A stretch of DNA of 64,000 nt, from contig JAGMAD010000003.1 of assembly GCA_023130975.1 (NCBI GenBank), positions 129,692-193,691 of the forward strand, given 5' to 3'. Within the stretch, counting starts at the first letter, position 1; every line of letters starts with the position of its first letter. The notes under the pieces are model-generated. The model ran no database searches and was not told the DNA's origin. It saw only the letters and a list, made by a program, of their open reading frames with translations. Position numbers and translations under genes: made by a program. This stretch comes from Candidatus Parcubacteria bacterium (lineage in GTDB: Bacteria > Patescibacteriota > Minisyncoccia > Minisyncoccales > JAGMDC01). Positions 3,581 to 56,809 of the stretch are shown here, piece by piece.

Positions 3581-3585
3581 AAAAT

Positions 3586-3620
3586 AAGAACCTGTCTCGC
3601 TTTGCTCGGCAGAACCTTGA
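3586..3620. repeat. AGAACCTTG-family small repeat unit (AAGAACCTG-N-CAGAACCTTGA)
   Basis: Same unit recurs at >=13 loci in the window (see findings). Confidence 0.6.
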
Positions 3621-3834: not shown

Positions 3835-4599
3835 ATGACACGGATTATTTCCATCGCCAATCAGAAAGGCGGAGTTGGAAAATCAAATGTTGCAGTTAAT
3901 CTTCCGGTTTTTTTAAGCGCTAAGGGAAAGAAAGTTTTGTTAGTGGATATGGATCCTCAGGCAAATGCTACTTTGAGTTTAGGCATTAACTGCCGCAATT
4001 TGCCTCTTTCTATTTATAATGTTTTAATGGACCAGATTACTCCTTCAGCTATTATCAGGAAGACCTCGTTTTTTGGATATGATATTATGCCGGCTTCTCC
4101 GGATTTGGCTGGTGCTACTGTAGAATTAGTAGAAGCAAAAAATCGAGAGTTCAAATTAGCTCAAATTTTAAAAAAAGTTGAAGAACCATACGATTTTATT
4201 ATCATTGATTCTCCTCCGAGTTTAGGAATTCTAACCCTTAATACCTTAGTTGGTTCCAAAGAGGTTTTAATTCCGGTTCAATGCGAATATTTGGCTTTGG
4301 AAGGATTAGGACAACTTTTAGATACAATTGCCTTAGTGAAAAATAATCTTGGTCAAGATTTAAAAATTGCCGGCGCTCTATTAACAATGTATAATAGAAA
4401 AAATCGTCTTTCCAGGGACGTAGCTAAAGAAGTTAGAAGGAATTTTCCTGGCTATGTCTTTGACAGCGTTATTCCCAGAAGCGTGGCTTTAGCTGAAGCG
4501 CCCAAATATGGCCAGACCATTTTACAATATGCTCCCGGCTCTCAAGCAGCCAAGGCCTATAGAGAATTAGCCGAAGAACTTATCAACAGAAATGACTAA
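3835..4599 (+). CDS. parA: ParA/Soj chromosome-partitioning ATPase
   Basis: N-terminal KGGVGKS deviant Walker A and ParA-like length. Start placed at the ATG downstream of the tRNA. Confidence 0.85.
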   Translation: MTRIISIANQKGGVGKSNVAVNLPVFLSAKGKKVLLVDMDPQANATLSLGINCRNLPLSIYNVLMDQITPSAIIRKTSFFGYDIMPASPDLAGATVELVEAKNREFKLAQILKKVEEPYDFIIIDSPPSLGILTLNTLVGSKEVLIPVQCEYLALEGLGQLLDTIALVKNNLGQDLKIAGALLTMYNRKNRLSRDVAKEVRRNFPGYVFDSVIPRSVALAEAPKYGQTILQYAPGSQAAKAYRELAEELINRND

Positions 4600-4724
4600 T
4601 AACTAATTCCTAATTACTAATCAAATCCCAATGACCAATGACTAAATGACTAAAAACTTTTAGACATTAGACATTTTGGAATTAGACATTGATTAGAAAT
4701 TAGACATTAGAAATTAGAAATTCC
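4600..4724. repeat. direct-repeat (iteron-like) spacer between parA and parB
   Basis: There are 3 copies of AATGAC(C/T)AA and 4 copies of TTAGACATT plus AGAAATT repeats. parA and parB are usually adjacent. Confidence 0.4.
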
Positions 4725-12799: not shown

Positions 12800-12834
12800 C
12801 AAGGTTCTGCGAACAAAGTGAGCAGGTTCTTATT
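12800..12834. repeat. AGAACCTTG-family repeat unit (inverted orientation)
   Basis: caaggttctgcgaacaaagtgagcaggttcttatt. Confidence 0.55.
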
Positions 12835-14766: not shown

Positions 14767-14803
14767 GAGAATCAAGGTTCTTGCTGAAAGCGAGGTTCTT
14801 ATT
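14767..14803. repeat. AGAACCTTG-family repeat unit (inverted)
   Basis: gagaatcaaggttcttgctgaaagcgaggttcttatt upstream of fusA. Confidence 0.55.
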
Positions 14804-17020: not shown

Positions 17021-17391
17021 ATGCCTAATCAAAATTTTTCTAAATTTCATCATATTGTAGCGGTAACATGCTTAATAGAGAATAATGGGCGTTTTTTATT
17101 AATAAAAAGGAGCTCCAAAGAAGATTATTATGGTGGAAAATGGGTTTTTCCAGGAGGGAAGGTAGAAAGAGAAGAAGACGTAATCCAGACGTTACTTAGA
17201 GAAATAAAAGAAGAAACCGGGCTTGAAACTCAAAGAAAAGTCGCTTTTTAAGGAGTTATTCATTTTCAAGAAAAGATGGTTCCTCAACAACTGGTTTGGT
17301 ATTTTGTCTAAAGTATAAAAGCGGTAAGATAAAACTTGATAAAAATTCAGAAGATTTTGCATGGATTCTACCAGAAGAGATTTATAATTAA
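17021..17391 (+). pseudogene. NUDIX hydrolase with a frameshift (likely at the T-run near 17243-17248)
   Basis: Nudix box GGKVEREEDVIQTLLREIKEETGL in frame 2 ends at 17251. The C-terminal part (LVFCLKYKSGKIKLDKNSEDFAWILPEEIYN) continues in frame 1 to 17391. Confidence 0.5.
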
Positions 17392-17556: not shown

Positions 17557-17790
17557 ATGGCAACTTTATCTAAAAACTTAATAGTATCTAAAGAATTCAT
17601 TCAAAAAAGAGGAATGGTTTTTTTGCCTTTGGCGGAATATGAGAAAATAAAAGAAAAAATAGAAAGATTAGAAAGAGAAAGAAAATTTTCACAAGAGGAA
17701 GCAGAGATCCTAAGAATTATTGCGGAGGGAGAGAGAGAATATAAAGAAGGGAAATTAAAGCCGATAAAGTCCTTAGCCGAGATTAAATAA
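17557..17790 (+). CDS. putative antitoxin of a type II TA pair
   Basis: 77-aa coiled/charged protein that ends 2 nt before the RelE/ParE-like toxin gene. Confidence 0.4.
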   Translation: MATLSKNLIVSKEFIQKRGMVFLPLAEYEKIKEKIERLERERKFSQEEAEILRIIAEGEREYKEGKLKPIKSLAEIK

Positions 17791-17792
17791 TT

Positions 17793-18050
17793 ATGATTAT
17801 TTATCCAACTTCCCGATTTAGAAAATCTTTTAAGAAATTGCCGAGCACCATACAGAAAAAGGCTAAATTGAGAGACAAAATATTTAGGAAAGATCCTTTT
17901 GCTTTAAATCTTCAAACTCATAAACTTAAAGGCAAACTAAAAGATTACTGGGCATATTCGGTTAACGATGATTATCGCGTTCTCTTCCGTTTTATAAATG
18001 AAGACAGCGCGATTTATTTTAATATCGGTACCCATGAGATTTATAAATAA
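17793..18050 (+). CDS. RelE/ParE (YafQ-like) type II toxin
   Basis: HKLKGKLKDYWAYSVNDDYRVLFRF ... IGTHEIY pattern typical of RelE/ParE. Confidence 0.65.
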   Translation: MIIYPTSRFRKSFKKLPSTIQKKAKLRDKIFRKDPFALNLQTHKLKGKLKDYWAYSVNDDYRVLFRFINEDSAIYFNIGTHEIYK

Positions 18051-18090
18051 AAAATTTGATTTTTTTGGAGAAGTTTGTTAAAGTAAAAAT

Positions 18091-18384
18091 ATGAGTTTAG
18101 ATGAAATCAAAAATTTAATAAAAATAGATGGGGGAAAGTTTATTATAGTGGAAAATGGGGAACCAGTATTAATGGTAATGAGTTTTGATGACTATAAAAA
18201 AATAATAGGGAATTCTGAAAAAATTTCTTCGCAACAGTCAAATTCTAATTCTGAAAAAGAAATCCCAGGAGCTCAAGAAGTTCAAGAATTTAATTCAGGG
18301 AGCGATAACGAATATGCAGAAACAGTTGAAAAAGCATCTCCCCAAACCGAGGAATCATTAAAAATTGAGGATTTGCCAGTTTGA
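18091..18384 (+). CDS. Phd/YefM-like antitoxin domain protein (orphan)
   Basis: N-terminal GEPVLMVMSFDDYKKI matches the Phd/YefM fold signature. The C-terminal half is acidic and low-complexity. Confidence 0.5.
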   Translation: MSLDEIKNLIKIDGGKFIIVENGEPVLMVMSFDDYKKIIGNSEKISSQQSNSNSEKEIPGAQEVQEFNSGSDNEYAETVEKASPQTEESLKIEDLPV

Positions 18385-18470
18385 TTTAGATAATAGATAA
18401 TAGATGATAGATAAGTATTGACATAATTCTTTTATTTTATTACCATTAAAATATACAAAAATTAAAAAAT

Positions 18471-18599
18471 ATATAAAATAAAGATTTAGATAATAGAGAT
18501 TAGAATTTAGGTAATTTTTTATCTAACATCTAACATCTAATATCTAAAATCCAATTATGGCTGAGAAAGAAAAATTTGAAAGAGGAAAAACCCATCTTA
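18471..18599 (+). repeat. copy A of a 129-bp perfect duplication (tuf promoter, leader and first 14 codons)
   Basis: Identical to 19688-19816. Confidence 0.85.
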
Positions 18600-19627: not shown

Positions 19628-19687
19628 ATTCAACTTAGATAGGGCATTTCTTAAATTAACAAAGAATATAAAATAGAATATAAAATA

Positions 19688-19816
19688 GAATATAAAATAA
19701 AGATTTAGATAATAGAGATTAGAATTTAGGTAATTTTTTATCTAACATCTAACATCTAATATCTAAAATCCAATTATGGCTGAGAAAGAAAAATTTGAAA
19801 GAGGAAAAACCCATCT
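19688..19816 (+). repeat. copy B of the 129-bp duplication (native tuf promoter/5' end)
   Basis: Identical to 18471-18599. It is preceded by 3x AATATAAAATAG tandem repeats. Confidence 0.85.
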
Positions 19817-20975
19817 TAATATTGGTACTATTGGTCACGTAGACCATGGTAAAACCACTCTTACAGCAGCTATTCTGCATGTTTTAAGGTTAAAAGGTCT
19901 TAAGGCATCAGAGAAAGCAGTGGAGCAAATTGATTCTGCTCCAGAAGAAAAAGCCCGTGGTTTAACTATTAACATTGCCCATTTAGAGTATGAGACAGAT
20001 AAAAGACACTATGCTCATATTGATTGTCCGGGCCATGCTGATTACATTAAGAATATGGTTACTGGTGCCGCTCAAATGGACGGAGCAATTTTAGTGGTTT
20101 CGGCTGCTGATGGTGTTATGCCTCAAACCAGAGAGCATATTTTGCTTGCTCGCCAAGTAGGATTATCTCAAATAGTGGTGTTTTTAAATAAATGCGATAC
20201 TGTAGATGATCCTGAGATAATTGATTTAGTTGAGTCAGAAGTAAAAGAGCTTTTAAAGAAATACGAATTTCCAGGAGATGAAATCCCAATTGTTCGCGGT
20301 TCAGCTCTTAAAGCCCTGGATGTAAAATCAGCTGACGATGAAGCCGCCAAACCAATTTTGGATTTAGTTAAAGCAGTAGATGATTACTTTCCTGAACCAA
20401 CTCGGGATATTGATAAACCATTTTTAATGGCTGTTGAGGATGTTTTCTCTATTGCTGGAAGAGGAACTGTTGCTACTGGCAGGATTGAGCGAGGAATAGT
20501 TCATCCAAACGATGAGGTAGAAATTGTTGGTTTTAAACCTACTCAAAAAACAGTGGCAGTGAGCGTGGAAATGTTTAATAAGATGCTTGATGAAGGAAGA
20601 GCCGGTGATAATGTCGGAATTTTACTTCGCGGACTCAAGAAAGAAGAGGTGGAAAGAGGACAAGTTTTAGCAAACCCCGGCAGCATTACTCCTCATACTG
20701 AATTTGACGGTGAAATTTATGTTTTAACCAAAGAAGAAGGCGGAAGACATTCTCCTTTTTTTGCCGGTTATAAGCCGCAATTTTACATTCGAACTACTGA
20801 TGTTACTGGAGATGTTGCTTTGCCAGAAGGGACAGAAATGGTTATGCCTGGAGATACTGTTAATCTAAAAGTTAAATTAATAGCTCCGGTTGCCCTTCAA
20901 GAAAAACAAAGATTTGCTATAAGAGAAGGAGGCAAGACCGTAGGCGCAGGAGTAGTGACGAAGATCATTAAGTAA
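19776..20975 (+). CDS. tuf: elongation factor Tu
   Basis: [18 protein letters not shown] and NKCD motifs; 399 aa. Confidence 0.9.
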
Positions 20976-21504: not shown

Positions 21505-22107
21505 ATGAAGTTTATCTTGGCAAAAAAATTAGAAATGTCACAGATGTTTGATGAAAAAGGCAAGGTCATTCCAGTGACCTTAATTGAAGCCGGACCTTGT
21601 TTTATCACTCAAATAAAAAACAAAGACAAGGATAAATATGAAGCAGTTCAGCTTGGTTTTGAAAAAATAACCAAACAGAAGAAAATAAAAAAAACAATGA
21701 AAGGAAAAGAATATAAATACATCAGAGAATACAAAATTGACGAGAACATTTCTCGTCAATTAAAGGTGGGAGATGAAATCAATGTTTCTGTTTTTCAAGA
21801 AGGGGATAAAGTAAAAATTTCTGGAATTTCTAAAGGAAAAGGATTTCAGGGAGCAGTAAAAAGATGGGGATTTCATGGAAGAAACGCTACTCATGGAGTT
21901 AAGCATGAACAAAGAACATTAGGTTCAGTTGGAAGTTCTTATCCAGAAAGAGTAATTAAAGGAAAAAAAATGCCCGGTAGAATGGGTGCCGAGCGAGTCA
22001 CAGTTAAAAATTTAAAAATAGCAAAAATTGACAAAGAGAATAATCTATTAGCAGTGAAAGGCGCAATACCAGGCCGACGCGGCACATTGCTTGAAATTAG
22101 AGGATAA
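21505..22107 (+). CDS. rplC: 50S ribosomal protein L3
   Basis: L3 pattern (GKGFQGAVKRWGFHG). Confidence 0.85.
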   Translation: MKFILAKKLEMSQMFDEKGKVIPVTLIEAGPCFITQIKNKDKDKYEAVQLGFEKITKQKKIKKTMKGKEYKYIREYKIDENISRQLKVGDEINVSVFQEGDKVKISGISKGKGFQGAVKRWGFHGRNATHGVKHEQRTLGSVGSSYPERVIKGKKMPGRMGAERVTVKNLKIAKIDKENNLLAVKGAIPGRRGTLLEIRG

Positions 22108-22216
22108 TTTCCAGAATTTCTAATTTCTAATAAATTTCTAATTCTTTAATTTTTAATTGAAAATTGGAGCATTGAAAATTGATTGAAAATTGATAATTGA
22201 TAATTGAAAATTTATC
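22108..22216. repeat. heptamer tandem-repeat spacer: (AATTTCT)n then (ATTGAAA)n
   Basis: 7-bp periodic AT repeats between rplC and rplD. Confidence 0.6.
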
Positions 22217-23350: not shown

Positions 23351-24220
23351 ATGAAAAAGTATAAACCAACAACACCAGGAAGGAGAGGAATGACCAAGGT
23401 TGAATCTTCTCAATTAACTAAGAAAAAACCTGAAAAAGGTTTGCTTTCAGTAATTAAAAAAAGGGGAGGAAGAAATCTAAAAGGAAGAATCACAATCAGG
23501 CATAGGGGCGGCGGAGCAAAAAGGATGTATAGACATATTGATTTTGGTCAGGAGAAAGTTAATATTTCAGCAAAGGTCATTGCTTTAGAATATGATCCCA
23601 ATCGTTCTGCTTTTATTGCTCTTTTGGAATATCAGGATAAACCCCCCACCACTTTTCAGGGAAAAGTGGTGGGGGGTAAAGAAAAAAGATATATTTTGGC
23701 TCCTCAAGGATTAAAAGTGGGCGATGAAATCATTATTTCAGAAAAAGCAGGACTCAAGCCGGGAAATAGAATGAAATTAAAAAATATTCCAGTCGGAACT
23801 TTGATCTATAATGTTGAACTTGAGCAGGATAAAGGAGGAGTTATCGTAAAAGGAGCGGGCACCACAGCAAAGGTTTTGGCTCAGGAAGGAAGATATACTC
23901 ATCTTGTTTTTCCTTCTTCTGAAATTAGGAAAGTGCCCAAGGAATGTTTTGCTTCAATAGGCATAGTTTCCAATCCCGAACATAAGTATGTTACAATAGG
24001 AAAGGCAGGTAGAACACGTTATAAAGGCAAAAGGCCCCATGTTAGGGGAACGGCAATGAATCCTGTTGACCATGCTCATGGCGGCGGAGAAGGAAGAACT
24101 GGGATTGGACTAAAACATCCGAAAACTGCTTGGGGTAAGCCAGCTTTAGGGGTAAAAACAAGAAAGAAAAAATGGACAGACAAACTTATTATTAAAAGAA
24201 GAAAAAAGAAAAAGAAATAA
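23351..24220 (+). CDS. rplB: 50S ribosomal protein L2 carrying a 13-aa in-frame palindromic insertion
   Basis: L2 motifs (KPTTPGRRGMT, GGGEGR). The insertion KPPTTFQGKVVGG is encoded by a perfect hairpin at 23641-23677. Confidence 0.85.
   Translation: MKKYKPTTPGRRGMTKVESSQLTKKKPEKGLLSVIKKRGGRNLKGRITIRHRGGGAKRMYRHIDFGQEKVNISAKVIALEYDPNRSAFIALLEYQDKPPTTFQGKVVGGKEKRYILAPQGLKVGDEIIISEKAGLKPGNRMKLKNIPVGTLIYNVELEQDKGGVIVKGAGTTAKVLAQEGRYTHLVFPSSEIRKVPKECFASIGIVSNPEHKYVTIGKAGRTRYKGKRPHVRGTAMNPVDHAHGGGEGRTGIGLKHPKTAWGKPALGVKTRKKKWTDKLIIKRRKKKKK
23641..23677. repeat. GC-rich perfect hairpin (CCCCCCACCACTTTT-loop-AAAAGTGGTGGGGGG) inside the rplB ORF
   Basis: The 15-nt arms are identical to the 16S h44 tip (51882-51896 / 51971-51985). 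Confidence 0.8.
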
Positions 24221-24223
24221 CCT

Positions 24224-24346
24224 AATAAATTTTCAATTTTCAATTTTCAATTTTCAATGAATTTTCAATGATTTAATTTTCAATTAGAAATTAAAGAATT
24301 AGAAATTTAATAGAAATTAGAAATTAGAAATTAGAAATTTTGGATT
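24224..24346. repeat. heptamer tandem-repeat spacer: (TTTTCAA)n then (AGAAATT)n
   Basis: Reverse-complement arrangement of the 22108-22216 element. Confidence 0.6.
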
Positions 24347-25196: not shown

Positions 25197-25274
25197 CTAA
25201 ATAGATATTAAATGATGGATTATAGATGTTAGTTAATTATCTAAAATCTAAAATCTAATATCTAAAATCTAACT

Positions 25275-25958
25275 TTGAGTCATAGAGTTCATCCAAAAGC
25301 ATATAGATTGAGAGAAACAAACGACTGGAATTCTCGATGGCAAGCTAAAAGAAATCTCCCGGAATATTTAAAGGAGGATTTTATAATAAGAGAGTTTTTA
25401 GAAAAAAAATTAAAAGATTCCGGAGTTCAGAATATTGAAATTGAAAGATTTTCCGGTAAAGTCAATATTATTATTAACACTTCAAAACCAGGTTTTATTA
25501 TTGGTCGTGGCGGAAAAGGAGCAGAAGAACTAAAAAGAGATTTAGAAAAGAAAATCATTAAAAGTTATAAATTATCTATTAATAAAAAGAAAACGGCTTC
25601 TTTAACTCAAGGAAAAAAAGAGATGAGGATTGAAATTAGAGAGATAAGAAATCCTTGGGCACATTCAACAATTGTTGCTCAATGGATTGCTCAACAAATT
25701 GAAAAAAGAATGCGTTATCGGAGAACGCTTAAACAGGCATTAAGCAAGGTTGTGGCCAATAAAGAAATAAAAGGAGTGAGAGTAGAAGTTTCCGGTCGTT
25801 TAGACGGGACCAAAATTGCTCGGCGAGAATGGCTTCAGGTCGGTCATCTTCCTCGTCAAACTTTAAGAGCAAAGATTGATTATGGAACAGCAGCGGCTCA
25901 CTGTACTTATGGAATAGTAGGAGTGAAAGTTTGGATATATAAGGGCGAACAGTTTTGA
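25275..25958 (+). CDS. rpsC: 30S ribosomal protein S3 (TTG start)
   Basis: KH domain GFIIGRGGKGAEEL and the S3 C-terminal domain. Confidence 0.85.
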   Translation: MSHRVHPKAYRLRETNDWNSRWQAKRNLPEYLKEDFIIREFLEKKLKDSGVQNIEIERFSGKVNIIINTSKPGFIIGRGGKGAEELKRDLEKKIIKSYKLSINKKKTASLTQGKKEMRIEIREIRNPWAHSTIVAQWIAQQIEKRMRYRRTLKQALSKVVANKEIKGVRVEVSGRLDGTKIARREWLQVGHLPRQTLRAKIDYGTAAAHCTYGIVGVKVWIYKGEQF

Positions 25959-26653: not shown

Positions 26654-26659
26654 TAATAT

Positions 26660-26846
26660 AAGAACCTGCCTCGCTAATGCTCGGCAGAACCTTGATTCCT
26701 TCGGAATTAAGAACCTGCCTCGCCAATGCTCGGCAGAACCTTGATTCCTGCCTGTCGGCAAGGCAGGCGCTAATGTATAAATATATAAGAACCTGCCTCG
26801 CTAATGCTCGGCAGAACCTTGAATGCTTCGCATTTAATCTTGAATT
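26660..26846 (+). repeat. three tandem AGAACCTTG-family units forming a composite ~150-bp 5'-region shared with rpmE
   Basis: Units at 26660-26695, 26709-26744 and 26787-26822. The stretch 26709-26856 is ~95% identical to the reverse complement of 45450-45600. Confidence 0.75.
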
Positions 26847-27110
26847 ATGAAAAAAGAATTAAAAGGAACAGTTGTTTCAAATAAAATGTCAAAAACTATA
26901 GTAGTAGAGGTGGAAAGGATAAAAGTTCATCCTAAATATAAAAGAAGATATAAAGTACACAAAAAATACAAAGTTCATAATGAAAAGGGAGAATTTAAAG
27001 TTGGAGATAGGGTTATAATCCAAGAGAGTAGACCATTAAGTAAAGAGAAGAAGTGGAGAGTGAAGGGATTTGTTCGCGAAGACAAACCGAAGGTGAAGTC
27101 TGAGCGGTAA
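26847..27110 (+). CDS. rpsQ: 30S ribosomal protein S17
   Basis: S17 OB-fold pattern ([18 protein letters not shown]). Confidence 0.85.
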
Positions 27111-27584: not shown

Positions 27585-27675
27585 ATGAAGATTAAAAAAG
27601 GAGACCAGGTTTTAAATTCAAGAATATGTATTTATACATTAGCGAATCAAGGTTCTGGTCTCCTTTCTTATAATT
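27585..27675 (+). repeat. duplicated rplX start (ATGAAGATTAAAAAAGGAGACCAGGTT) plus a 64-bp insert forming a long imperfect hairpin
   Basis: The 27-bp copy at 27585-27611 matches the real start at 27676-27702 with 2 mismatches. The insert contains an AGAACCTTGATTC half-unit. The pseudo-start is out of frame. Confidence 0.6.
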
Positions 27676-27999
27676 ATGAAAATTAAAAAAGGAGACCAGG
27701 TTCTTATTATTTCCGGTAAAGACCGAGCCAGAAAAGGCAAGGTTCTTCAGGTTATTCCTAAAGAAGAAAGGGTTTTGGTTGAAGGTATTAATATAAGAAA
27801 AAAAAGTGTTAGGCCAAAAAAAAGCGGAGAAAAAGGACAGATAGTAGAAATGCCCGGTCCAATTTCTATTTCAAATTTGAAACTTATTTGTCCGAAATGT
27901 AAAAAAGCAACAAGAGTAGAGTATAAAATAATAAAATCAAAAGAGGGTAGCAAGAGGACAAAAATAAGAATATGCAAAAAATGCCAATCAGAAATATGA
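27676..27999 (+). CDS. rplX: 50S ribosomal protein L24 with a C-terminal zinc ribbon
   Basis: KOW motif KIKKGDQVLIISGKDRARKG plus CPKCKK...CKKCQ. Confidence 0.85.
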   Translation: MKIKKGDQVLIISGKDRARKGKVLQVIPKEERVLVEGINIRKKSVRPKKSGEKGQIVEMPGPISISNLKLICPKCKKATRVEYKIIKSKEGSKRTKIRICKKCQSEI

Positions 28000-28550
28000 T
28001 TAAACTAAAAGACAAATATATTAAAGAAGTAGTGCCGGCTATGAAAAAAAAGTTTGAATACAAGAACAGTATGGCTGTTCCTAAAATTGAGAAAGTAGTG
28101 ATTAATAATAGTTTTGGCAGAATGATAATAGATAAAACATCTGATGAGAAAAAAAAAATTAAAGAAGCAATTATACAGGATTTGTCTTTAATCTGCGGTC
28201 AGCGTCCAGTTTTAACTAAAGCAAAGAAGTCCATTTCTACTTTTAAAGTTCGTCAAGGTATGGAAATTGGGGCAAAAGTTACTTTGAGAAAGAAAAAAAT
28301 GTATGATTTCTTAGATAGGTTAATTCATATTACTCTTCCTCGCTCTCGTGATTTTCGAGGTATTGACCCTAAATCAATTGATGAAAAAGGAAATTTAACC
28401 ATCGCTATCAAAGAACATATTTCTTTTCCAGAAGTATCGCCAGAGAAGACAAGGTTTCTTTTTGGATTTGAAATAACTGTGGTGACTACTGCCAAAGATA
28501 AAAAACAGGGATTAGAATTATTAAAATTGTTGGGATTCCCGATTAAATAG
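27996..28550 (+). CDS. rplE: 50S ribosomal protein L5
   Basis: L5 pattern. The start overlaps the rplX stop (ATGA). Confidence 0.8.
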   Translation: MIKLKDKYIKEVVPAMKKKFEYKNSMAVPKIEKVVINNSFGRMIIDKTSDEKKKIKEAIIQDLSLICGQRPVLTKAKKSISTFKVRQGMEIGAKVTLRKKKMYDFLDRLIHITLPRSRDFRGIDPKSIDEKGNLTIAIKEHISFPEVSPEKTRFLFGFEITVVTTAKDKKQGLELLKLLGFPIK

Positions 28551-28644
28551 ATATTAGATGATAGATTATAGATTATGGATAATAGATGATGAAAAATAAA
28601 AATCCAAAATCCAACATCTAATATCCAACATCTAAAATCCAATT

Positions 28645-28830
28645 GTGGCTACACAATCTCAAATTGCAAAATCAGAGAAAAAATCTAAGTTTAGTTCCCG
28701 AATTGTTCGGAGATGTTTTAGGTGTGGCAGAAAAAGAGGGTATATGAGAAAATTTGGATTGTGTCGGATTTGTTTTCGGGAAATGGCAAATAAAGGATTG
28801 ATACCAGGAGTAAAGAAATCATCGTGGTAA
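28645..28830 (+). CDS. rpsN: 30S ribosomal protein S14 type Z (zinc-binding, 61 aa, GTG start)
   Basis: [23 protein letters not shown]. Confidence 0.8.
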
Positions 28831-28835
28831 ATTTT

Positions 28836-29222
28836 ATGGATCCTATCACTGATATGTTCAACAGAATAAAAAATGCTCAAGCCGTATTGAAACCTACGGT
28901 GAGTATTCCTTTTTCAAATTTAAAATATGAAATTGCTAAAATTTTAGAGAAAGAAAAATATGTCAAAAAAATAGAGAAAAAAAGAAGAAAAACAAAAAAG
29001 ACAATAGAAATTTCTCTTAAATATAATAAAAATATTCCGGCTATTATTGAATTGCGAAGAATCTCAAAATCAGGACAAAGAATTTATCTTCCAGTTCAGG
29101 AAATTAAGAAAGTAAAAGGAGGATTTGGTTTGTCTATTATTTCTACATCAAAAGGACTAATGACTAATAGAGAGGCAAGAAAACAGAAAGTCGGAGGTGA
29201 GATAATCGCTGAAATCTGGTAA
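28836..29222 (+). CDS. rpsH: 30S ribosomal protein S8
   Basis: MDPITDMFNRIKNAQ start. Confidence 0.85.
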   Translation: MDPITDMFNRIKNAQAVLKPTVSIPFSNLKYEIAKILEKEKYVKKIEKKRRKTKKTIEISLKYNKNIPAIIELRRISKSGQRIYLPVQEIKKVKGGFGLSIISTSKGLMTNREARKQKVGGEIIAEIW

Positions 29223-29376
29223 TCCGCTCGGGAATTAGTTTTTGGTACACGCAAATTTCTCCAGCGGAAATTTGCTGCTACTCGCGAATTACCCCCTCCT
29301 TTTGCGCAAGCGCGAAAAGGAGGGGGACCAAGCCAATTCGCTGCGGATTGTCCCAAAAACCAATTTCCTCGCTTAA
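29223..29376. mobile_element. MITE-like element with ~17-bp terminal inverted repeats and a variable GC hairpin core (copy 1)
   Basis: Ends CGGGAATTAGTTTTTGG...CCAAAAACCAATTTCCTCG. Core hairpin CCCCTCCTTTTGCGCAAGCGCGAAAAGGAGGGG. The paralog at 46502-46648 has a different core hairpin. Confidence 0.65.
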
Positions 29377-34401: not shown

Positions 34402-34584
34402 ATGATAGGATTTTGTTACATATGCGGAAACTTCCGATGGGTAAAAAAGGTAAAGTTAGTTTACAGAGATGTAGGGGGACAAGTAGAACTTAAGAAACGA
34501 TTATGTGGAAAATGCCTCGAACTAGGTAGAGGAAAACCGATTCTAAGTCTGTGCGGCGTTTACGAGATACAAGATATATTTTGA
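34402..34584 (+). CDS. 60-aa CxxC...CxxC zinc-ribbon protein with a strong SD
   Basis: AGGAGGT sits 7 nt upstream, which is unusual here. GC content is higher than in flanking genes. It sits in the slot where infA normally follows map. Confidence 0.4.
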   Translation: MIGFCYICGNFRWVKKVKLVYRDVGGQVELKKRLCGKCLELGRGKPILSLCGVYEIQDIF

Positions 34585-34753
34585 ATAAAAAAACAAAAAT
34601 AGGGTAAAAGCATATTCGCTTGAACCCTTTATTTTTTTGAGCGAAGCGAGAAAAATCAAGGTTCTTGAGCGAAGCGCAAGGTTCTTAATTTTTTCTTTAC
34701 AAAATCTGAATAATTTATTAAGCTAAGGATAGTACACCATAAAAGAAAAAAAA

Positions 34754-37552: not shown

Positions 37553-37571
37553 AAAATCTTTAAAATTCTAT

Positions 37572-37605
37572 AAGAACCTATCTCGCTAACGCTCGGCAGA
37601 ACCTT
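37572..37605. repeat. AGAACCTTG-family repeat unit (extended ~70-bp version shared with 40973-41045)
   Basis: taagaacctatctcgctaacgctcggcagaaccttctaatt. Confidence 0.6.
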
Positions 37606-37668
37606 CTAATTATTTCGTTCGGTTAAAATACAAAAGTGAACTTTTGTATTTTACCTTCACTCATAATT

Positions 37669-40086: not shown

Positions 40087-40974
40087 ATGATAAAAGCATT
40101 AACATTAAAAGAATATGTGAAAAAAAACGATAAAGAACTGGCAGGTTTGATTGTAAAGATGGCTGGTATTGCAGAAAGAATAAGCCAGGAGCTTCCATAC
40201 AGGCGAGGCAAGGCAGATACAAAAAATGTATTCGGAGAAAAGCAATTAGTTGCAGATAAATGGGCCGATAAATTTATTATTAAAGAATTAGACAAATCAG
40301 GATTAGTTAAGGAAATGGTATCGGAAGAGCAGGAGGATGTTGTTAAGCTTAATGATAAAGCATTGTTTAGTATTACTTTAGATCCATTAGACGGTTCTTC
40401 AAATATTGAAAGCAATAATTTAGTTGGCACAATTTTTGGTATATATAAAAAAGACCTGCCAGCTAAAGGAAGGCACCAGGTAGGCGCGCTGTATATTTTA
40501 TATGGTCCCGTAATGACTTTAGTTTATGCAACAAGAAATGGAGTTAACGAATTCCTGCATACCAGAAAAGGATTTGTGCTTAAGGAGAAAAATATAAAAC
40601 TTCCAAAGCAAGGTAAACTATATGGGGTTGGGGGACTGCGTAAGGATTGGCTTCCCGGGTTTAGAAAATATATTAAGGGATTAGAAACAGAGGGATATAA
40701 ATTAAGATATGGAGGAGCATTTGTTGGTGATTTTAATCAGATTCTCCATTATGGCGGGATTTTTGCTTATCCAGCGCTTAGTACCAAGCCAAATGGGAAA
40801 TTAAGATTATTAGCCGAAAGCAATCCAATGTCATTTATTATAAAGCAAGCAGGCGGTGCTTCAACCAATGGCGCAGGGTCAATATTAGATATTGAGCCAG
40901 AAAGCATTAATCAAAGAGTTCCAACTTATGTTGGCAATAAAGGTCTCATTAAAAATTTAGAAAAAATATTATAA
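40087..40974 (+). CDS. fbp: fructose-1,6-bisphosphatase class I
   Basis: LDPLDGSSNI metal-binding motif. Confidence 0.75.
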   Translation: MIKALTLKEYVKKNDKELAGLIVKMAGIAERISQELPYRRGKADTKNVFGEKQLVADKWADKFIIKELDKSGLVKEMVSEEQEDVVKLNDKALFSITLDPLDGSSNIESNNLVGTIFGIYKKDLPAKGRHQVGALYILYGPVMTLVYATRNGVNEFLHTRKGFVLKEKNIKLPKQGKLYGVGGLRKDWLPGFRKYIKGLETEGYKLRYGGAFVGDFNQILHYGGIFAYPALSTKPNGKLRLLAESNPMSFIIKQAGGASTNGAGSILDIEPESINQRVPTYVGNKGLIKNLEKIL

Positions 40975-41008
40975 GAACCTGCCTCGCTAACGCTTGGTAG
41001 AACCTTCT
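40973..41008. repeat. AGAACCTTG-family repeat unit overlapping the fbp stop codon
   Basis: taagaacctgcctcgctaacgcttggtagaaccttct. Confidence 0.6.
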
Positions 41009-42000: not shown

Positions 42001-42077
42001 AAAAGATATAATAAAAAGTTTGATTACAAGGTTCTGCCGAAGGCAGGTTTTTACAATCGAAGCGTCTAATAGTTTTC

Positions 42078-42334: not shown

Positions 42335-43010
42335 TATGCTTAGTTTATCTGCCAAAATTAGAAAAGAAGAGAAATCAGGTACCCTTAGAAATAAGGGTCT
42401 TTTGCCCGCGGTTCTTTATGGGCCAAAGATAAAAAATCTTTCTTTACAGGTAGATGAAAAAGAATTTGAAAAAATTTTTAAAGAAGCAGGCGAAAGCTCA
42501 TTAATTAAGTTAAAAGTTGGTGAGGATGAATTCTTGGTTTTAGTCCATGATCTTCAAAAAGATCCCTTAAAAGGTAATTTTATTCATATTGATTTTTATC
42601 AACCCGTCCTTGACGAAGAAACTGAAGCTACTGTACCCTTAGAATTTATTGGCGAGGCAGCGGCAGTGAAAGAATTAGCAGGAACATTGGTTAAAAATAT
42701 TAAAGAATTAGAAGTAAGAGCTTTGCCTCAAAATCTTCCTCATGATATTAAAGTCAATGTGGAAAGCTTAAAAACCTTTGAAGACACTATTACAATAAAG
42801 GATTTAAAAATTCCAGAAGGGGTAAAAGTGTTAAAAGAACCGGAGGAAATTATAGCTTTAGTTACTCCTCCGGAAAAAGTAGAAGAAGAATTAGAAAAGC
42901 CAGTTGAGGAAAAAGTAGAAGAAGTAGAGAAAGTAGGCGAGAAAGAGAAAGAAGAGGAAAGAGAAGAGAAAGAGGCGGAAAAAGGCGAAGAAGAAAAAAA
43001 AGTTAGTTGA
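42324..43010 (+). CDS. rplY: 50S ribosomal protein L25/Ctc with a Glu/Lys-rich C-terminal tail
   Basis: L25 N-terminal pattern (RNKGLLPAVLYG). Confidence 0.7.
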   Translation: MKINMLSLSAKIRKEEKSGTLRNKGLLPAVLYGPKIKNLSLQVDEKEFEKIFKEAGESSLIKLKVGEDEFLVLVHDLQKDPLKGNFIHIDFYQPVLDEETEATVPLEFIGEAAAVKELAGTLVKNIKELEVRALPQNLPHDIKVNVESLKTFEDTITIKDLKIPEGVKVLKEPEEIIALVTPPEKVEEELEKPVEEKVEEVEKVGEKEKEEEREEKEAEKGEEEKKVS

Positions 43011-43046
43011 AATTTTCAATTTTCAATTTTCAATTTTCAATTTTCA

Positions 43047-44453
43047 ATGAATTTTCAATTTTCAATTTTCAAACAAGCAATTTTATTTGTTCTTATATTA
43101 TTTTTGGTCTTACCTAGTTTTTTTCTATTAGCTGAAGAAGATTTAGAAGAAATCTGCCAGATAGAAAATATTGAGAAAAAAGAAAGCGAACTTTCCAAGG
43201 AAGATTACGAAGCTTTTTTAAAGAAATGCGAAGCATATTTTGTAGAAAAAAGCAAAGAGATTGAAAAGGATATCAATAAAACTGAAGCAGAGAAAAAGAC
43301 ATTGCAAAATAAAATTTATAGTTTAAGAAAAAAAATTCAAAACTTAAATTATAAAATCAATCAGAGCAATCTAATAATAAAAGACCTTGATTTACAAATT
43401 GGAGATACCCAGTTTTCCATAGAAGAAACCGGTTTAGAGATAGAAGATTTAAAGCAGAGATTAGTAAAACTTTTACGGCTTGTTTATGAAGAAGACCAAA
43501 AATCATTGATTGAGATTTTTCTTTCAGAAGAAGAAATCTCTGATTTCTTTGATAATTTGGTAGCATTGGAAATACTTAATTCTGAGAATCAAGAAATTTT
43601 AGATAATATTAAAAGCTTAAAATCTTATTTAGAAAATCAAAAAATATCCCTGGATGAAGAAAAGGAGGACAGAGAGAATACTCTTGCTGTTTATAATTTA
43701 CAAAAACAAGAAAATGCAGAAATAAAAAAAGAACAGGAATATTTTCTCAAATTAACTGAAAAAGAATATCAAAAGTATATTGCAGAGAAGGAAGAGACAG
43801 ATAAAACTGCTTCTGAGATAAGGGCTCGGATTTTTGAATTAGTCGGTGTTGTCAAAGCTCCTACTTTTGGCGAAGCATATGAATTAGCTAAGTATGTTCA
43901 GGGCATTACAGGAATTCGTCCTGCATTTTTGTTGGCGATTTTAACCCAGGAATCAAATATTGGTAAAAATGTTGGCCAATGTTATTTGAAAAATACAAAA
44001 ACAGGTGAGGGGATTTATATTAAAACAGGAAATACAGCTCCTAAGACAATGGGTCCTAAGAGTATTCCTAAGTTTTTGAACATTACCAAAGAGTTAGGAA
44101 GAGATCCTTATAGCACGCCTGTTTCCTGCTGTATGTATTACAAGGGCAAACCCTATGGCTGGGGAGGAGCAATGGGCCCAGCCCAGTTTATTCCTTCCAC
44201 TTGGGTTTTATATCAAGATAAAATAAGAGCAGTTACTGGAACTACTCCAGATCCTTGGAACATAAAAGACGCCTTTTTAGCGTCTGGTATTTATTTAAAA
44301 GAATTGGGCGGCAGTAGAAATGAATTTAAGGCAGCCATGCATTATTTTTCCGGAAGCACTTGGACTAAATATGAAGAATTTTACGGAAGGTCAGTAATAT
44401 CCTTAGCTGATAGATATGAAAAAGATATTGCTAAGCTTGAAAGCGAGAAGTAA
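43047..44453 (+). CDS. lytic transglycosylase (SLT domain) with an N-terminal signal/TM and coiled coil
   Basis: LTQESNIG (catalytic E-S) and GAMGPAQFIPSTW motifs. The N-terminal codons come from a (TTTTCAA)n repeat. Confidence 0.55.
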   Translation: MNFQFSIFKQAILFVLILFLVLPSFFLLAEEDLEEICQIENIEKKESELSKEDYEAFLKKCEAYFVEKSKEIEKDINKTEAEKKTLQNKIYSLRKKIQNLNYKINQSNLIIKDLDLQIGDTQFSIEETGLEIEDLKQRLVKLLRLVYEEDQKSLIEIFLSEEEISDFFDNLVALEILNSENQEILDNIKSLKSYLENQKISLDEEKEDRENTLAVYNLQKQENAEIKKEQEYFLKLTEKEYQKYIAEKEETDKTASEIRARIFELVGVVKAPTFGEAYELAKYVQGITGIRPAFLLAILTQESNIGKNVGQCYLKNTKTGEGIYIKTGNTAPKTMGPKSIPKFLNITKELGRDPYSTPVSCCMYYKGKPYGWGGAMGPAQFIPSTWVLYQDKIRAVTGTTPDPWNIKDAFLASGIYLKELGGSRNEFKAAMHYFSGSTWTKYEEFYGRSVISLADRYEKDIAKLESEK

Positions 44454-45213: not shown

Positions 45214-45459
45214 TTATTTTTTTCCCTGCCTGCCTACCGGCGGGTTTCTTTTCCTTTCTTTTTTTGCCAACCGTTTTCTAAATTTTTCAACTCTTCCAGC
45301 AGTATCTACCATTTTCTCTTGGCCTGTATAAAAAGGATGACATTGAGAGCAAATCTCAATTTCAATGAGTTCTTTTGTTGAGCCAATAGTAAAACTATTT
45401 CCGCAGGCACAGCGGACTTGAGCGTTAGGATAGTATTTAGGATGAATGTCTTTTTTCAT
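45214..45459 (-). CDS. rpmE: 50S ribosomal protein L31
   Basis: [10 protein letters not shown] ... CxxC zinc-ribbon L31 pattern. Confidence 0.8.
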
Positions 45460-45600
45460 AATTCAAGATTAAATGCGAAGCATTCAAGGTTCTGCCAAGC
45501 GTTAGCGAGGCAGGTTCTTATATATTTATACATTAGCGCCTGCCTTGCCGACAGGCAGGAATCAAGGTTCTGCCAAGCGTTAGCGAGGCAGGTTCTTATA
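45460..45600 (-). repeat. inverted copy of the composite AGAACCTTG-unit 5'-region (see 26709-26846)
   Basis: ~95% identical to 26709-26856, including the ATGAAAAAAG start context. Confidence 0.75.
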
Positions 45601-45706: not shown

Positions 45707-46501
45707 ATGACGGATAAAAAAGAAACCAAAGAGAAACAAAAAAAAGAAAAGGAAACCAAAAAAGAAAAACCAAAGGAAGAAAAAAAAGAAGTTAAAAAAG
45801 TTGCCAAGAAAGCACCTGATTTTAAAATTGATGTAGATGAAATGTTGGCAGTCGGAGTTCATTTCGGTCATCGGACTTCCCGTTTGCATCCCAAAATGGA
45901 ACCATATTTAGCTGGTGTCAAGAATACGGTTCATATCATTGATCTAGAAAAAACAGCGGAAAAATTGAAAGAAGCCCTGAAGTTCATCCAGGAAATTATT
46001 TCCGAAAATAAGGTCTTGCTTTTAGTGGGGACAAAAATTCAGATTAAAGATTTAGTTAAAGAAATTGCTCAAGAATGTGAATTACCTTATGTTAACGAAA
46101 GATGGCTGGGCGGCACTCTGACTAATTTTGAAGTAATTTCAAAAAGAGTTGGATACTTAAAAGAAATAGAAGAAAAAAAGGCAAGCGGAGCATGGGAAAA
46201 GTACACAAAGAAGGAAAGGATTAAAATGAATAGGGAATTTCAGAATCTCAAGACAAAATTTGAAGGTCTTAAAACACTCTCCAGAGTTCCTGATACTATG
46301 TTTGTTTTAGATATAAGAAAAGATGATTTAGCAGTGAAAGAAGCTAAAATGAAAGGGATAAAAGTAATTGCTATTTGTGATACCAATACCGACCCTAGTT
46401 TGATTGATTATCCTATTCCAGCAAATGACGATGCTATTTCATCTGTGAAATATATTTTAGAAAAGGTTAAAGAAGCAATACTAAAAACAAAGGCAAAGTA
46501 A
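45707..46501 (+). CDS. rpsB: 30S ribosomal protein S2 with a ~40-aa Lys/Glu-rich N-terminal extension
   Basis: S2 core from MLAVGVHFGH. Confidence 0.85.
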   Translation: MTDKKETKEKQKKEKETKKEKPKEEKKEVKKVAKKAPDFKIDVDEMLAVGVHFGHRTSRLHPKMEPYLAGVKNTVHIIDLEKTAEKLKEALKFIQEIISENKVLLLVGTKIQIKDLVKEIAQECELPYVNERWLGGTLTNFEVISKRVGYLKEIEEKKASGAWEKYTKKERIKMNREFQNLKTKFEGLKTLSRVPDTMFVLDIRKDDLAVKEAKMKGIKVIAICDTNTDPSLIDYPIPANDDAISSVKYILEKVKEAILKTKAK

Positions 46502-46648
46502 TACGCTCGAGAATTAGTTTTTGGTACACGCAAATTTCTCCAGCGGAAATTTGCTGCTACTCGCGAATTGCCGAGCACTCAACAAGTTGAGTGCTCGAAC
46601 CAAGCCAATTCGCTGCGGATTGTCCCAAAAACTAATTCCCTCGCTTAA
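46502..46648. mobile_element. MITE-like element copy 2 (same TIRs as 29223-29376, different core hairpin)
   Basis: CGAGAATTAGTTTTTGG...CCAAAAACTAATTCCCTCG. Core CGAGCACTCAACAAGTTGAGTGCTCG. It starts directly after the rpsB stop. Confidence 0.65.
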
Positions 46649-50181: not shown

Positions 50182-50283
50182 AAAGATGAAAGAAATAAGG
50201 AAAGTTCTTTGAAAATTTTTAGATTAAGAATTGAGTAAATTTAATTGGTTTTTTAGAGTTGTCCCGATTTTATTTGAGAGTTC

Positions 50284-50315
<32 letters not shown>

Positions 50316-50707
50316 GATAAGGCATGCAAGTCGAGGGGTCACCTTCGGGTGGCACCGGCAAACGGGTTAGTAACACGTGGATACATACCCTAAAGACTCG
50401 TATAACTCGGAGAAATCCGAGCTAATTCGAGATAGTCTGGTAGTCTATTTTTGGAAGTCAACTATAAGAATTTTTAATTTTCAATTTCTAATTTTTATTT
50501 AATTTCTAATTTTCAATGTTTAAAAAGCAACCCTACGGGGAATCCCGAACTTCATTCGGTCTAGAAATCATTAAAAATTTATTAAAAATTAAGAATTAGA
50601 AATTAGAAATTTTCTGCGTATTTAATAATAGATAAAGTTGATTTTTAGGAATAGGCTACCAGTAAAGGTTATACTTTGTATTTCCGCTTTGGGACTGGTC
50701 CGCGGCT

Positions 50708-50743
<36 letters not shown>

Positions 50744-52018
50744 GATGACGAGTAGGGGGCATGAGAGTGTGTTCCCCAACAATGGTACTGAGAACGGACC
50801 ATACTCCTACGGGAGGCAGCAGTCGAGAATATTGGGCAATGGGCGAAAGCCTGACCCAGCGACGCCGCGTGCGGGAAGAAGGTCTTCGGATTGTAAACCG
50901 CTTTTATTAAGGAACAATCCGCCAGTCGGCGGATGAGCGTACTTGATGAATAAGGAGCCGCTAATCACGTGCCAGAAGCGTCGGTAATACGTGAGCTCCA
51001 AGCGTTATCCGGATTTATTGGGCGTAAAGCGTCCGTAGGCGGTTTGAAAAGTCTTTGGTTAAATCCTAGGGCTTAACCTTTGGACTGTCAAAGATACTTT
51101 CAGACTAGAGGGTGTTAGAGGCTGATGGAACGGTCGGTGTAGGGGTGAAATCCGTTGATATCGACCGGAACACCGAAAGCGAAGGCATTCAGCTAGTGCA
51201 ACCCTGACGCTGAGGGACGAAAGCGTGGGTAGCGAATGGGATTAGATACCCCAGTAGTCCACGCTGTAAACTATGGACACTAGCTATTGGTAGTGTCGAC
51301 CCTATCAGTGGCGAAGCTAACGCGTTAAGTGTCCCGCCTGGGAAGTACGAGCGCAAGCTTAAAACTCAAAGGAATAGACGGGGACTCACACAAGCGGTGG
51401 ATCATGTGGCTCAATTCGACGATAAACGAAGAACCTCACCAGGGCTTGACATGCTAGTGAAATCCCGACGAAAGTTGGGACTACCCACAAGGACACTAGC
51501 ACAGGTGCTGCATGGTTGTCGTCAGCAGGTGTCGTGAGACGCTCCTTTTAATAGGGAAACCTGCGCAACCCTTGCCCTATGTTTTACTTGTCATAGGGGA
51601 CTGCCCGGGATAACTGGGAGGAAGGTGAGGATAACGCCAAATCAGCATGGCCCTTTGATGCCCTGGGCTGCACACATGATACAATGGCCGGTACAATGGG
51701 CTGCTTAACCGCAAGGCGAAGCAAATCCCTTAAAGCCGGTCCCAGTTCGGATTGAGGTCTGCAACTCGACCTCATGAAGCCGGAATCGCTAGTAATCGCC
51801 AATCAGCTATGTGGCGATGAATATGTTCCTGAGTCTTGTACTCACTGCCCGTCACACCAAGAGAGCTGGCAGTACCCGAAACCCCCCACCACTTTTCGTG
51901 AAGATATTTAGATTAAGAAGAATTTTTGAAAAAGTCTATTTTAAATTCTTTTGACGGTTTATAATTCATGAAAAGTGGTGGGGGGCTAAGGTAAGGTCAG
52001 TAATATGGGTGAAGTCGT

Positions 52019-52821: not shown

Positions 52822-53015
52822 AACAAGGCATGCGTAGCGGAAGCTGTGCATGGATCATTACATTCTAAAAGTGTTGACTAAAGTTGAAGAGCGAGAATTC
52901 TCTCTTTAACTTTAAGGTATTAATCGAACACCTTAAAGATCGATTTCCTTCTTCGCCTCGCTACGCGAGGTCTCGGAGGACAAACTCGGGACAACTCTAA
53001 GAAACTTCGTAAGAA

Positions 53016-56709: not shown

Positions 56710-56809
56710 ATAATAGATAATGGATTATAGAGCTTGATTTTTTTATTTACCAAGGTATTTTTTAAAGGATTATCGATAATCTAAAATCCAGTATCTAATA
56801 TCCAATTTT

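Follow-up and report, generated by a model that had tools for sequence, protein, structure and literature searches.

Small hairpin repeats of patchy occurrence at gene boundaries in Candidatus Nealsonbacteria and related Patescibacteria

The stretch of DNA described here (64,000 nucleotides of the Candidatus Parcubacteria contig JAGMAD010000003.1, hereafter the window, with a GC content of 34%) is identical in sequence to part of the 192-kb metagenome scaffold ENA ERZ23499054 scaffold_3, and carries ribosomal-protein genes at whose junctions a family of small hairpin repeats is found. Its L14 protein has 94% identity with its counterpart in a Ca. Nealsonbacteria metagenome-assembled genome (MAG), the next matches being from Minisyncoccales/Paceibacteria (Patescibacteria), and Pfam searches of the flanking open reading frames (ORFs) supported the gene names rpmC, rpsQ, rplN, rplX, rpmE, infA and others used below. 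The repeat, referred to as the unit, measures 27-36 nt and was found singly, in tandem arrays of 2-5, or joined to short hairpins or to a 33-nt module carrying TATAAT (the P module).

Three units lie on the plus strand between rpmC and rpsQ (26659-26846). Unit 1 (26659-26694; E=7e-9 in the covariance model described below) is followed directly by a short hairpin, ATTCCTTCGGAAT (26695-26707), and then by unit 2 (26708-26743), a P module (ATTC…CGCTAATGTATAAATATA, 26744-26785) interrupted by a nested hairpin at 26748-26767, unit 3 (26786-26821; E=1e-8), and a hairpin with a P-module tail (AATGCTTCGCATT and TAATCTTGAATT, 26822-26846) that adjoins the rpsQ ATG at 26847. The spacer as a whole folds far better than its shuffles (z = -6.4). 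The segment opened by unit 2 recurs on the minus strand upstream of rpmE, where a unit (45563-45598) is followed by a P module that has the nested hairpin, by a second unit (45485-45520), by a hairpin and by the first 11 nt of rpmE; the two copies of this 150-nt composite (26708-26857 and 45449-45598) are 97% identical and reach 11 nt into both coding sequences. A preliminary description of this DNA, made from the sequence alone, had counted the composite among gene starts duplicated on either side of an insert; it is real, but it is a shared module and has no start duplication flanking it. The unit at 45563-45598 begins 6 nt after a promoter-like TTGATT-N17-TAATAT, and the interrupted variant of the P module is also present in a metagenome locus (L168). 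The 16-nt core of the P module occurs exactly three times in the window (at rpsQ, at rpmE and on the minus strand at rplX), each time beside units.

For comparison, 80 species representatives of relatives sharing the ribosomal-protein region (1.31 Mb in total) were used, of which L007 is closest to the window (about 93% amino-acid identity), together with at least 120 contigs obtained by an exact-pattern scan of JGI metagenomes. The covariance model was trained on 30 units, all from other genomes and none from the window, and was run with filters off. Centres for the analysis of covariation were picked by their flanks alone from the window, the 80 relatives and 120 metagenome contigs, yielding 120 distinct centres.

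In the window, AGAACCTTG gave 16 exact matches against 0.66 expected, a count reached in none of 100 shuffles, and the two-flank pattern TAAGAACCT…AGAACCTTG, with mismatches allowed, gave 15 matches against 0-2 in 20 shuffles; the enrichment of the repeat is not due to chance. The covariance model recovered 14 full units, twelve of them with E-values of 7e-9 to 9e-6 and the remaining two weaker (0.005 for the unit at 40972 and 0.12 for that at 37571), as well as a half-unit at rplX (E=0.095), and nothing else significant over the window. All 13 copies listed in the preliminary description were present at the same positions or within a few bases of them, and eight units have a near-identical long centre in common, which, like the duplicated composite and the P core found three times beside units, speaks for recent copying. 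Fifteen of the 16 AGAACCTTG matches fall inside units: in 14 cases the match forms the right flank, either of a full unit or of that at rplX, and in one case it forms the left flank, at the 34687 unit; the sixteenth lies within the rplX coding sequence at 27738-27746 on the minus strand. This distribution does not fit a DNA uptake sequence (DUS/USS), a conserved 9-12-mer that is enriched on both strands throughout a genome whatever the local structure. An Rfam scan of the window at gathering thresholds returned only 16S rRNA and tRNAs, and a permissive scan around the units returned no credible family at E≤5.

The consensus of the unit is (A)UAAG-AAC-[CU…variable stem-loop…AG]-AAC-CUUGA(W), or as DNA (A)TAAG-AAC-[CT…AG]-AAC-CTTGA(W), with TAAGAAC-[CU..stem..AG]-AACCTTGA as the preferred spelling. 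Its two direct AGAACCU heptads can pair antiparallel, giving A-U, G-C, an AAC/AAC 3x3 internal loop, C-G and U-A. In nearly all of the 120 distinct centres the stem starts with the pairs C-G and U-A; position 3 of the stem is paired in 92% of centres, by GC, UA and CG types, compared with 42% for shuffled partners (maximum 51%), and position 4 in 75% compared with 44%. The variable upper helix is a real hairpin, supported by this covariation. A count of covariation on a trimmed alignment agrees, but its rows had been preselected for pairing, and the unbiased test is that on the flank-picked centres. The flanks are near-invariant across genomes of 21-51% GC and, because they do not vary, covariation cannot assess the outer helix UAAG/CUUG or the pairing of the heptads. 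Since the heptads face each other antiparallel, the conserved part can be read as a putative dyad-symmetric internal loop, with the outer helix on one side of it and the variable inner helix on the other. RNAfold gives the outer helix and the AAC/AAC loop exactly at the infA unit, and elsewhere where the flanks allow. On the opposite strand the loop is GUU/GUU (G·U, U·U, U·G) and the stem is continuous and followed by a U-rich tail. Many long centres share the apical motif YTCGCT-nnn-GCTCR. The asymmetry of isolated wobble pairs (three G·U as opposed to nine C·A or A·C) was considered as proof of a forward RNA, and was uninformative or slightly contrary.

The family is widespread but patchy, and the genome of the window is unusually rich in units. 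At least 120 metagenome contigs carry it; those listed hold 241 units in 757 kb, at 21-51% GC and commonly in arrays of 2-5, and where they include ribosomal genes their L14 is 68-80% identical to that of the window. The judgement that the family is patchy and this genome rich follows from the relatives, only six of the 80 having units in the ribosomal-protein region (11 units in 1.31 Mb, compared with 15 in the 64-kb window), while in the other 74 some 16-20 kb of this operon is free of units.

Copies come and go between close relatives, and arrays change in number. The rpmC-rpsQ spacer, 193 nt long with its three units in the window, is a single nucleotide in L007 (rpmC-TAA-C-ATG-rpsQ) and ranges from -5 to +8 nt in most of the 80 relatives. 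Over the shared 20 kb, L007 has one unit where the window has five: unit 1 of the array and the rplX structure are among those missing, and the sole unit kept is orthologous to that at 34657-34687. A second pair of genomes, L069 and L067, is 97% identical around rplX and differs by a 43-nt insertion at the rplX start, present in L069 only (…ACACA[TATGAAAATAA-GAACC…unit…CTTGATTTCT]TATGAAAATAAAAAAAGG) and consisting of a unit and an 11-nt duplication, TATGAAAATAA, which includes the start codon. These two filled and empty pairs, the variation in array copy number between near-identical contigs and the patchy presence in relatives all bear out the earlier suggestion that a small element moves or is copied. 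Moreover, one unit is scrambled in one of two genomes that are 97% identical, a sign of rapid decay, and unit centres are near-identical inside a genome and different between genomes. Units are also found between rpmC and rpsQ in L022 and L028, where they must be independent of those of the window, since the intervening relatives lack them. Within the source population, contigs encoding identical S17 or L24 proteins were all 100% identical to the window, with no strain polymorphism. As a negative control, a looser pattern was run on viral contigs and gave 61 matches in 60 contigs, most of them in coding sequence and nearly all without a hairpin; carriage by phages was rejected, as these matches are mostly due to chance. 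The only contigs of the viral collection with genuine hairpin units or arrays are L246 (~719-749) and L263 (502-578), both from IMG/VR, which may be misbinned DNA of the Candidate Phyla Radiation (CPR) or a CPR phage.

The starts of two window genes are duplicated, as had been noticed before. An upstream pseudo-copy of the rplX start on the plus strand (27585-27611) matches 27676-27702 at 26 of 27 positions, and a corresponding pseudo-copy of the infA start (56408-56447, plus strand) matches 56476-56515 at 35 of 40. The decoy start of rplX opens a 33-codon upstream ORF (uORF) that ends 11 nt into rplX and is called in the source annotation, and that of infA opens a uORF of 23 codons, which ends in a TGA overlapping the ATG of infA. 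Between the two infA copies lies the unit at 56442-56466 (plus strand, E=2e-7), which has the shortest centre, CTGCTTCGCAG; the duplicated segment ends with the left flank of this unit, AAAATAAGAA. The 11-nt duplication in L069 is an independent case of a start duplication flanking the insert.

At the rplX locus a P-module copy on the minus strand (ATTCGCTAATGTATAAATACATATTCTTGAATT, 27615-27647) adjoins an atypical unit on the same strand (27648-27706). This unit had been listed as a half-unit at 27640; the feature is real, but it is actually a full unit, although the covariance model matches it in part. Its right arm and flank lie in intergenic sequence, the rplX ATG (27676) falls in its 41-nt centre, and codons 6-11 of rplX form its left arm and left flank. 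Read on the minus strand, these codons are ATAAGAACCTGGTCTCC, that is, left flank plus stem arm, with the complementary arm upstream. They have 6 differences to L007 in 18 nt, against about 93% identity in the neighbouring sequence, and encode GDQVLI in the window and GDTVLI in L007; from this excess of differences, part of the rplX coding sequence seems to have been overwritten with the protein sequence nearly kept. In the predicted fold the anti-sequence pairs with the decoy copy, leaving the true start free.

The duplications measure ≤3 nt (rpsQ), 11 nt (rplX of L069), about 27 nt (rplX of the window) and 40 nt (infA), and because of this range they do not represent a fixed-length target-site duplication; the earlier view that the unit creates target duplications is supported only in part. 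The duplicated segments begin at or just before the ATG and finish at gene sequence resembling the left flank, the junction lying between AAAATAAGAA and AGG at infA and between ATGAAAATAA and AAAA at rplX of L069. The tie between unit and start duplication, which a duplicated start at a unit-free locus would loosen, is indeed loosened in part by tuf. Here a 142-nt direct repeat (18458-18599 and 19677-19818, 96% identical) without any AGAACC unit holds the 5' untranslated region (UTR) and about the first 13 codons, the copy preceding an unrelated 356-aa ORF at 18557 with a weak PepSY match. In this genome, a duplicated start is thus what survivable insertions in general lead to, and it does not identify the mechanism of the element. 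The duplicated starts look like what survives after insertion into essential 5' ends, rather than the product of a staggered cut by a transposase.

The remaining units of the window are single. That at 3585-3619 (plus strand, E=5.8e-8) lies 5 nt past the stop codon of a GH130 gene, in terminator orientation for a convergent tRNA-Leu gene. The unit at 12800-12832 (minus strand, E=4e-7) lies upstream of a small minus-strand ORF, which is L28-like by eye only and has no Pfam match; its left flank overlaps the TATAAT of a divergent leaderless M50 peptidase gene. Between rpsG and fusA a unit at 14773-14801 (minus strand, E=1e-8) is directed against transcription, the plus strand reading as a hairpin followed by GUUCUUAUUUUU. 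Another, at 34657-34687 (minus strand), is reversed between two plus-strand genes and is terminator-like on the plus strand (…GUUCUUAAUUUUUUCUUU). Further downstream, the unit at 37571-37606 (plus strand, right flank AGAACCTTC) lies upstream of a gene for a PEP-utilising enzyme, and that at 40972-41007 (plus strand), whose own TAA serves the FBPase gene as stop codon, lies upstream of a DeoC-type aldolase gene. Just past the aldolase stop follows a unit with a degenerate left flank (42027-42053, minus strand, E=8e-7), which is terminator-like on the plus strand, a terminator scan flagging 42033-42047.

The unit at 52711-52743 (plus strand, E=4e-7), missed in the preliminary description, contradicts its statement that all copies are intergenic, being located in the 3' part of a LAGLIDADG ORF within an insertion that splits the 3' end of the 16S rRNA. 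The 16S gene (50270-52870) has two insertions, of which one consists of ~200 nt of AT-rich hairpin repeats at ~50440-50640 and the other, of ~780 nt, contains the LAGLIDADG ORF (52110-52802) and separates the final ~50 nt (3' part from ~52822) from the rest of the gene. At 51428-51439 the 16S gene reads CGAAGAACCTCACC, matching the region of the universal AAGAACCTTACC close to position 975 in E. coli and having 8-9 nt in common with the joined unit flanks AAGAACCTT, which may be coincidence. No connection to the units was found for the likeness to the universal 16S AAGAACCUUACC (here AAGAACCUC at 51428).

Where genes were examined, no Shine-Dalgarno (SD) motifs were found upstream, and CACCTCCT does not occur anywhere in the window. 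The 3' tail of the 16S rRNA reads GGATCATTACATTCT in place of GGATCACCTCCTT, so that the anti-SD sequence CCUCC is absent. TATAAT-like boxes lie 4-6 nt before the ATG at 12845, 14126, 17557, 18091 and 45707, some with TTGATT 17 nt upstream, and several unit-free genes have TTGATT-N17-TAATAT 5 nt before the ATG. This arrangement is suggestive of leaderless mRNAs. Pairing of the repeat motif with the altered 16S tail (GGAUCAUUACAUUCU) was rejected, only 4 nt being complementary by eye.

With genes called crudely on the listed metagenome contigs, 48 arrays between co-directional genes are in sense and 20 in antisense orientation. In 14 of the 48 sense arrays the upstream gene stops at the TAA of the unit itself, and the unit lies within 12 nt of the stop in 23 of 48, the median distance being 18 nt; antisense arrays have no tight link to stop codons. 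This link fits AATAA-type targeting combined with selection in genomes that are nearly free of spacers, and also a role in RNA at the 3' end.

We favour, with a guarded confidence that leans towards it, the interpretation that the units are REP/MITE-like, non-autonomous mobile or recombinogenic structured repeats of Ca. Nealsonbacteria and relatives (Minisyncoccales/Paceibacteria). New copies would enter A-rich sites resembling the left flank (ATAAGAA), including TAA stop codons and Lys-rich gene starts, probably by microhomology-guided template switching or by gene conversion from an existing copy. If entry takes place a few codons into an essential gene, the only events to survive would be those that re-copy the segment from the start codon to the point of entry, a filter that would leave duplicated gene starts of variable length. 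Insertions of a damaging type are present, one in the LAGLIDADG ORF and others within the 5' ends of rplX and infA. As side effects, a forward unit could supply a -35 element (TTGAWW) from its right flank and, with a P module, a promoter 8-15 nt before the ATG; such a position would suit an organism with no SD motifs in the genes examined and no anti-SD sequence. In reverse, the hairpin and its U-rich tail would act as an intrinsic terminator.

Several points weigh against this interpretation. No transposase or other partner protein was found in the listed unit-bearing contigs, and none of the recurrent ORF families in their 757 kb has unit-like ends. The IS200/RAYT-like genes of three contigs (L096 6741-7445, L104 6895-7578 and L133 1-603; HUH motif NHFHIL) are flanked by other, unrelated hairpins of their own in direct orientation (e.g. 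TCGCACCTCCGATGTGCGA), and a RAYT/REP link was rejected on these contigs, a comparison that would not reveal a distant partner. Genes for GIY-YIG proteins, serine recombinases and 23S-intervening-sequence four-helix-bundle proteins recur in unit-bearing contigs and were likewise dismissed, not being consistently adjacent to units. The template-switching route is drawn from three or four junctions without an identified donor copy, consensus promoter matches in the AT-rich window are at chance level (66 against 62 expected), and whatever promoter and terminator activity the units may have is only predicted. The near-invariance of the flanks at 21-51% GC fits a conserved host function as well, and the roughly 70:30 sense bias and the tie to stop codons, obtained on metagenome loci whose genes were taken crudely as the longest ORFs, could be explained by an RNA function at 3' ends or between cistrons.

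The conserved symmetric base is possibly recognised by a protein, perhaps a dimeric one. A tentative and rather doubtful extension is that the AGAACCU/AGAACCU base with its AAC/AAC loop is the dock of a dimeric protein conserved throughout Paceibacteria, which would be either a structure-specific nuclease or recombinase of a new kind mobilising the 30-nt hairpins or an RNA-binding factor for which they punctuate gene boundaries; in the latter version the formation of 3' ends may be coupled to re-initiation or to leaderless promoters, in bacteria where SD/anti-SD pairing has been lost.

Among the alternatives, we consider it possible, if unlikely, that the units are cis-acting RNA signals at gene boundaries, bound by a conserved (dimeric) host protein and marking the 3' ends of upstream cistrons or serving as processing or stabilising sites, with copies spreading secondarily by duplication. 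The near-invariant flanks in distant genomes, the covarying stem, the sense orientation of about 70% of the arrays, their closeness to upstream stop codons and the folding of the outer helix and 3x3 loop where flanks permit would all be expected of such a signal. However, a core signal should not be dispensable, and the patchiness of the units argues against one, as they are absent from the operon in 74 of the 80 related species and L007 is without four of the window's five. Additionally, about 30% of the arrays are antisense, the wobble pairs do not favour the forward strand, and Rfam holds no matching family.

It is improbable, in our assessment, that the unit is primarily a mobile promoter/5'-UTR cassette in which the right flank provides the -35 and the P module the -10 element of near-leaderless transcripts, copied before genes and at times taking along the first codons of the donor. 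Of 228 distinct units, 152 indeed have TTGATT, TTGAAA or TTGAAT as right flank, -10-like hexamers are most frequent at 16 and 18 nt from it, the -10 sits 8-15 nt before the ATG in many loci with a P module, and the rpsQ/rpmE module contains ATGAAAAAAGA; the unit-free promoters of the window have the same layout, in an organism that lacks SD and anti-SD sequences. However, a -10 at the spacing of a sigma-70-type promoter (16-18 nt) is present in only about 25% of units, mostly those bearing a P module, which limits the right flank with a -10 as a promoter to this fraction; the left flank as a -10 or transcription start was rejected, since -10 hexamers do not peak in front of TAAGAAC. At 26659-26846 the -35/-10 spacing is broken by the hairpin linkers and by the nested hairpin, about 30% of the arrays face away from the downstream gene, consensus promoters are no commoner than chance in the window, and a promoter role leaves the covariation of the hairpin unexplained. 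The idea of a shared promoter/5'-UTR module, which had been raised in the preliminary description, is plausible but unproven.

That the units are in essence intrinsic terminators read on the reverse strand is very doubtful: the stem followed by GUUCUUAU(U/A)UU, the A-rich bases upstream of the left flank, the G·U/U·U/U·G loop that makes one long continuous stem, the terminator-like call at 42033-42047 and the reversed units behind the aldolase gene, tRNA-Leu and the small ORF 34402-34584 all speak for it, whereas the hairpin with U-rich tail is of terminator type on the reverse strand only and just about 30% of arrays are so oriented relative to flanking genes, reversed arrays have no tight stop-codon tie, terminators do not need the conserved 5' flank, and canonical terminators with a GC stem and T5 are present elsewhere in the window.

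Several other repeats and small genes were noticed in the window. Long AT-rich hairpins, in which (AATTTTC)n lies opposite (GAAAATT)n or (TTAGAAA)n, form a second repeat family at 4582-4723, 22092-22213, 24212-24340, 43002-43090, 50460-50612, 56930-57042 and 58521-58657; this family is found at other junctions of the ribosomal operon and within the 16S gene, and in L017 it occupies the rpmC-rpsQ junction. A third hairpin family (GATAATAGAT… opposite …ATCTAACATCTAA) is located at 18383-18559, 19702-19778, 25198-25277, 28544-28647 and 56703-56810, directly upstream of tuf, rpsC and rpsN and downstream of infA. A 75-nt direct repeat (96% identity) follows rpsH at 29219-29293 and rpsB at 46498-46572, and is unrelated to the AGAACC units. 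Between fusA and tuf, 17557-18384 holds genes for a RelE/ParE-like toxin and a Phd/YefM-like antitoxin, with a NUDIX fragment at 17021-17251; a promoter-like block, GGGGTTGATTTTTTGA…, is common to two of these small genes and also lies upstream of rpmE.

CPR/Patescibacteria genomes are considered to be streamlined, with little mobile DNA. In the present case a hairpin repeat of 30 nt has recently entered the operon that is the most conserved and the most tightly packed of bacteria, at the rpmC-rpsQ junction and in the first codons of rplX and infA, and the start-region duplications show how essential genes survive insertions at their 5' ends. The units account for odd spacers and for spurious uORF and ORF calls in the ribosomal operons of these MAGs, and may bear on the distribution of promoters and terminators in organisms without SD-led initiation. 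The covariance model can be used to annotate these repeats, the units are markers for strain-level polymorphism, and the hairpin offers a concrete bait for the protein that recognises it.

Among known systems, repetitive extragenic palindromic (REP) sequences and REPINs, which are mobilised by RAYT proteins (IS200-like Y1 transposases), are, as two accounts (PMC3733652, PMC3337134) and general background describe them, likewise imperfect palindromes of 20-40 nt with a short conserved tag, intergenic, often clustered and present in many copies, their stems are uniform within a genome and differ between species, and they have side effects on termination and mRNA stability. In size, palindromic structure, copy number and uniformity within a genome the units agree with REP sequences, with 14-15 of them in 64 kb and a covarying stem. 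However, REP sequences have a GTAG or CGTC tag at one end, whereas the units have direct heptads on both sides (TAAGAAC at the 5' end and AACCTTGA at the 3' end), and REPINs are inverted doublets whereas the units form head-to-tail arrays. A RAYT gene is bordered by its own repeats, which is not so for units and the RAYT-like ORFs of L096, L104 and L133.

Bacterial MITEs (miniature transposable elements with inverted repeats), such as the Correia/NEMIS elements of Neisseria, are small non-autonomous repeats of gene boundaries that are polymorphic between strains and may donate promoters, terminators or RNA-processing hairpins. The units have non-autonomy, placement at gene boundaries and polymorphism in common with them, but are 3-5 times smaller, have no parent insertion sequence among the recurrent ORF families screened, and are associated with duplications of ≤3 to 40 nt instead of a fixed length. 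Cyanobacterial small dispersed repeats and the pneumococcal BOX elements are reportedly modular, with variable tandem subunits, nested insertions and very small units. This build resembles the combination of unit, hairpin and P module, a likeness of description and not of sequence, and to our knowledge the dyad-symmetric AGAACCU/AGAACCU base is not known from either.

Integron attC sites also fold into a hairpin, in which the helix at the base is conserved, the spacer in the centre is unpaired and the top varies, and are recognised by their structure and not their sequence. Their boxes, however, are inverted repeats (RYYYAAC…GTTRRRY) that pair together, whereas in the units AAC opposes AAC, and the units have neither cassettes nor integrase context, so that the likeness is one of form only. 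TIGR arrays consist of two alternating repeats of 8-12 nt and two non-covarying 9-nt spacers, in 5-15 units beside a tas gene with a Nop domain (PMC12045711), and are likewise short units in tandem whose edges are conserved; they have been reported for phages and for CPR bacteria. A TIGR-Tas array was rejected for the present repeats, whose centres are self-complementary, covarying and identical within an array, and which lie at junctions of ribosomal and metabolic genes. No description of the family was found in the literature on CPR repeats and on leaderless or SD usage. In kind, the units are akin to REP sequences and MITEs, with the unusual dyad-symmetric base as their distinguishing feature.

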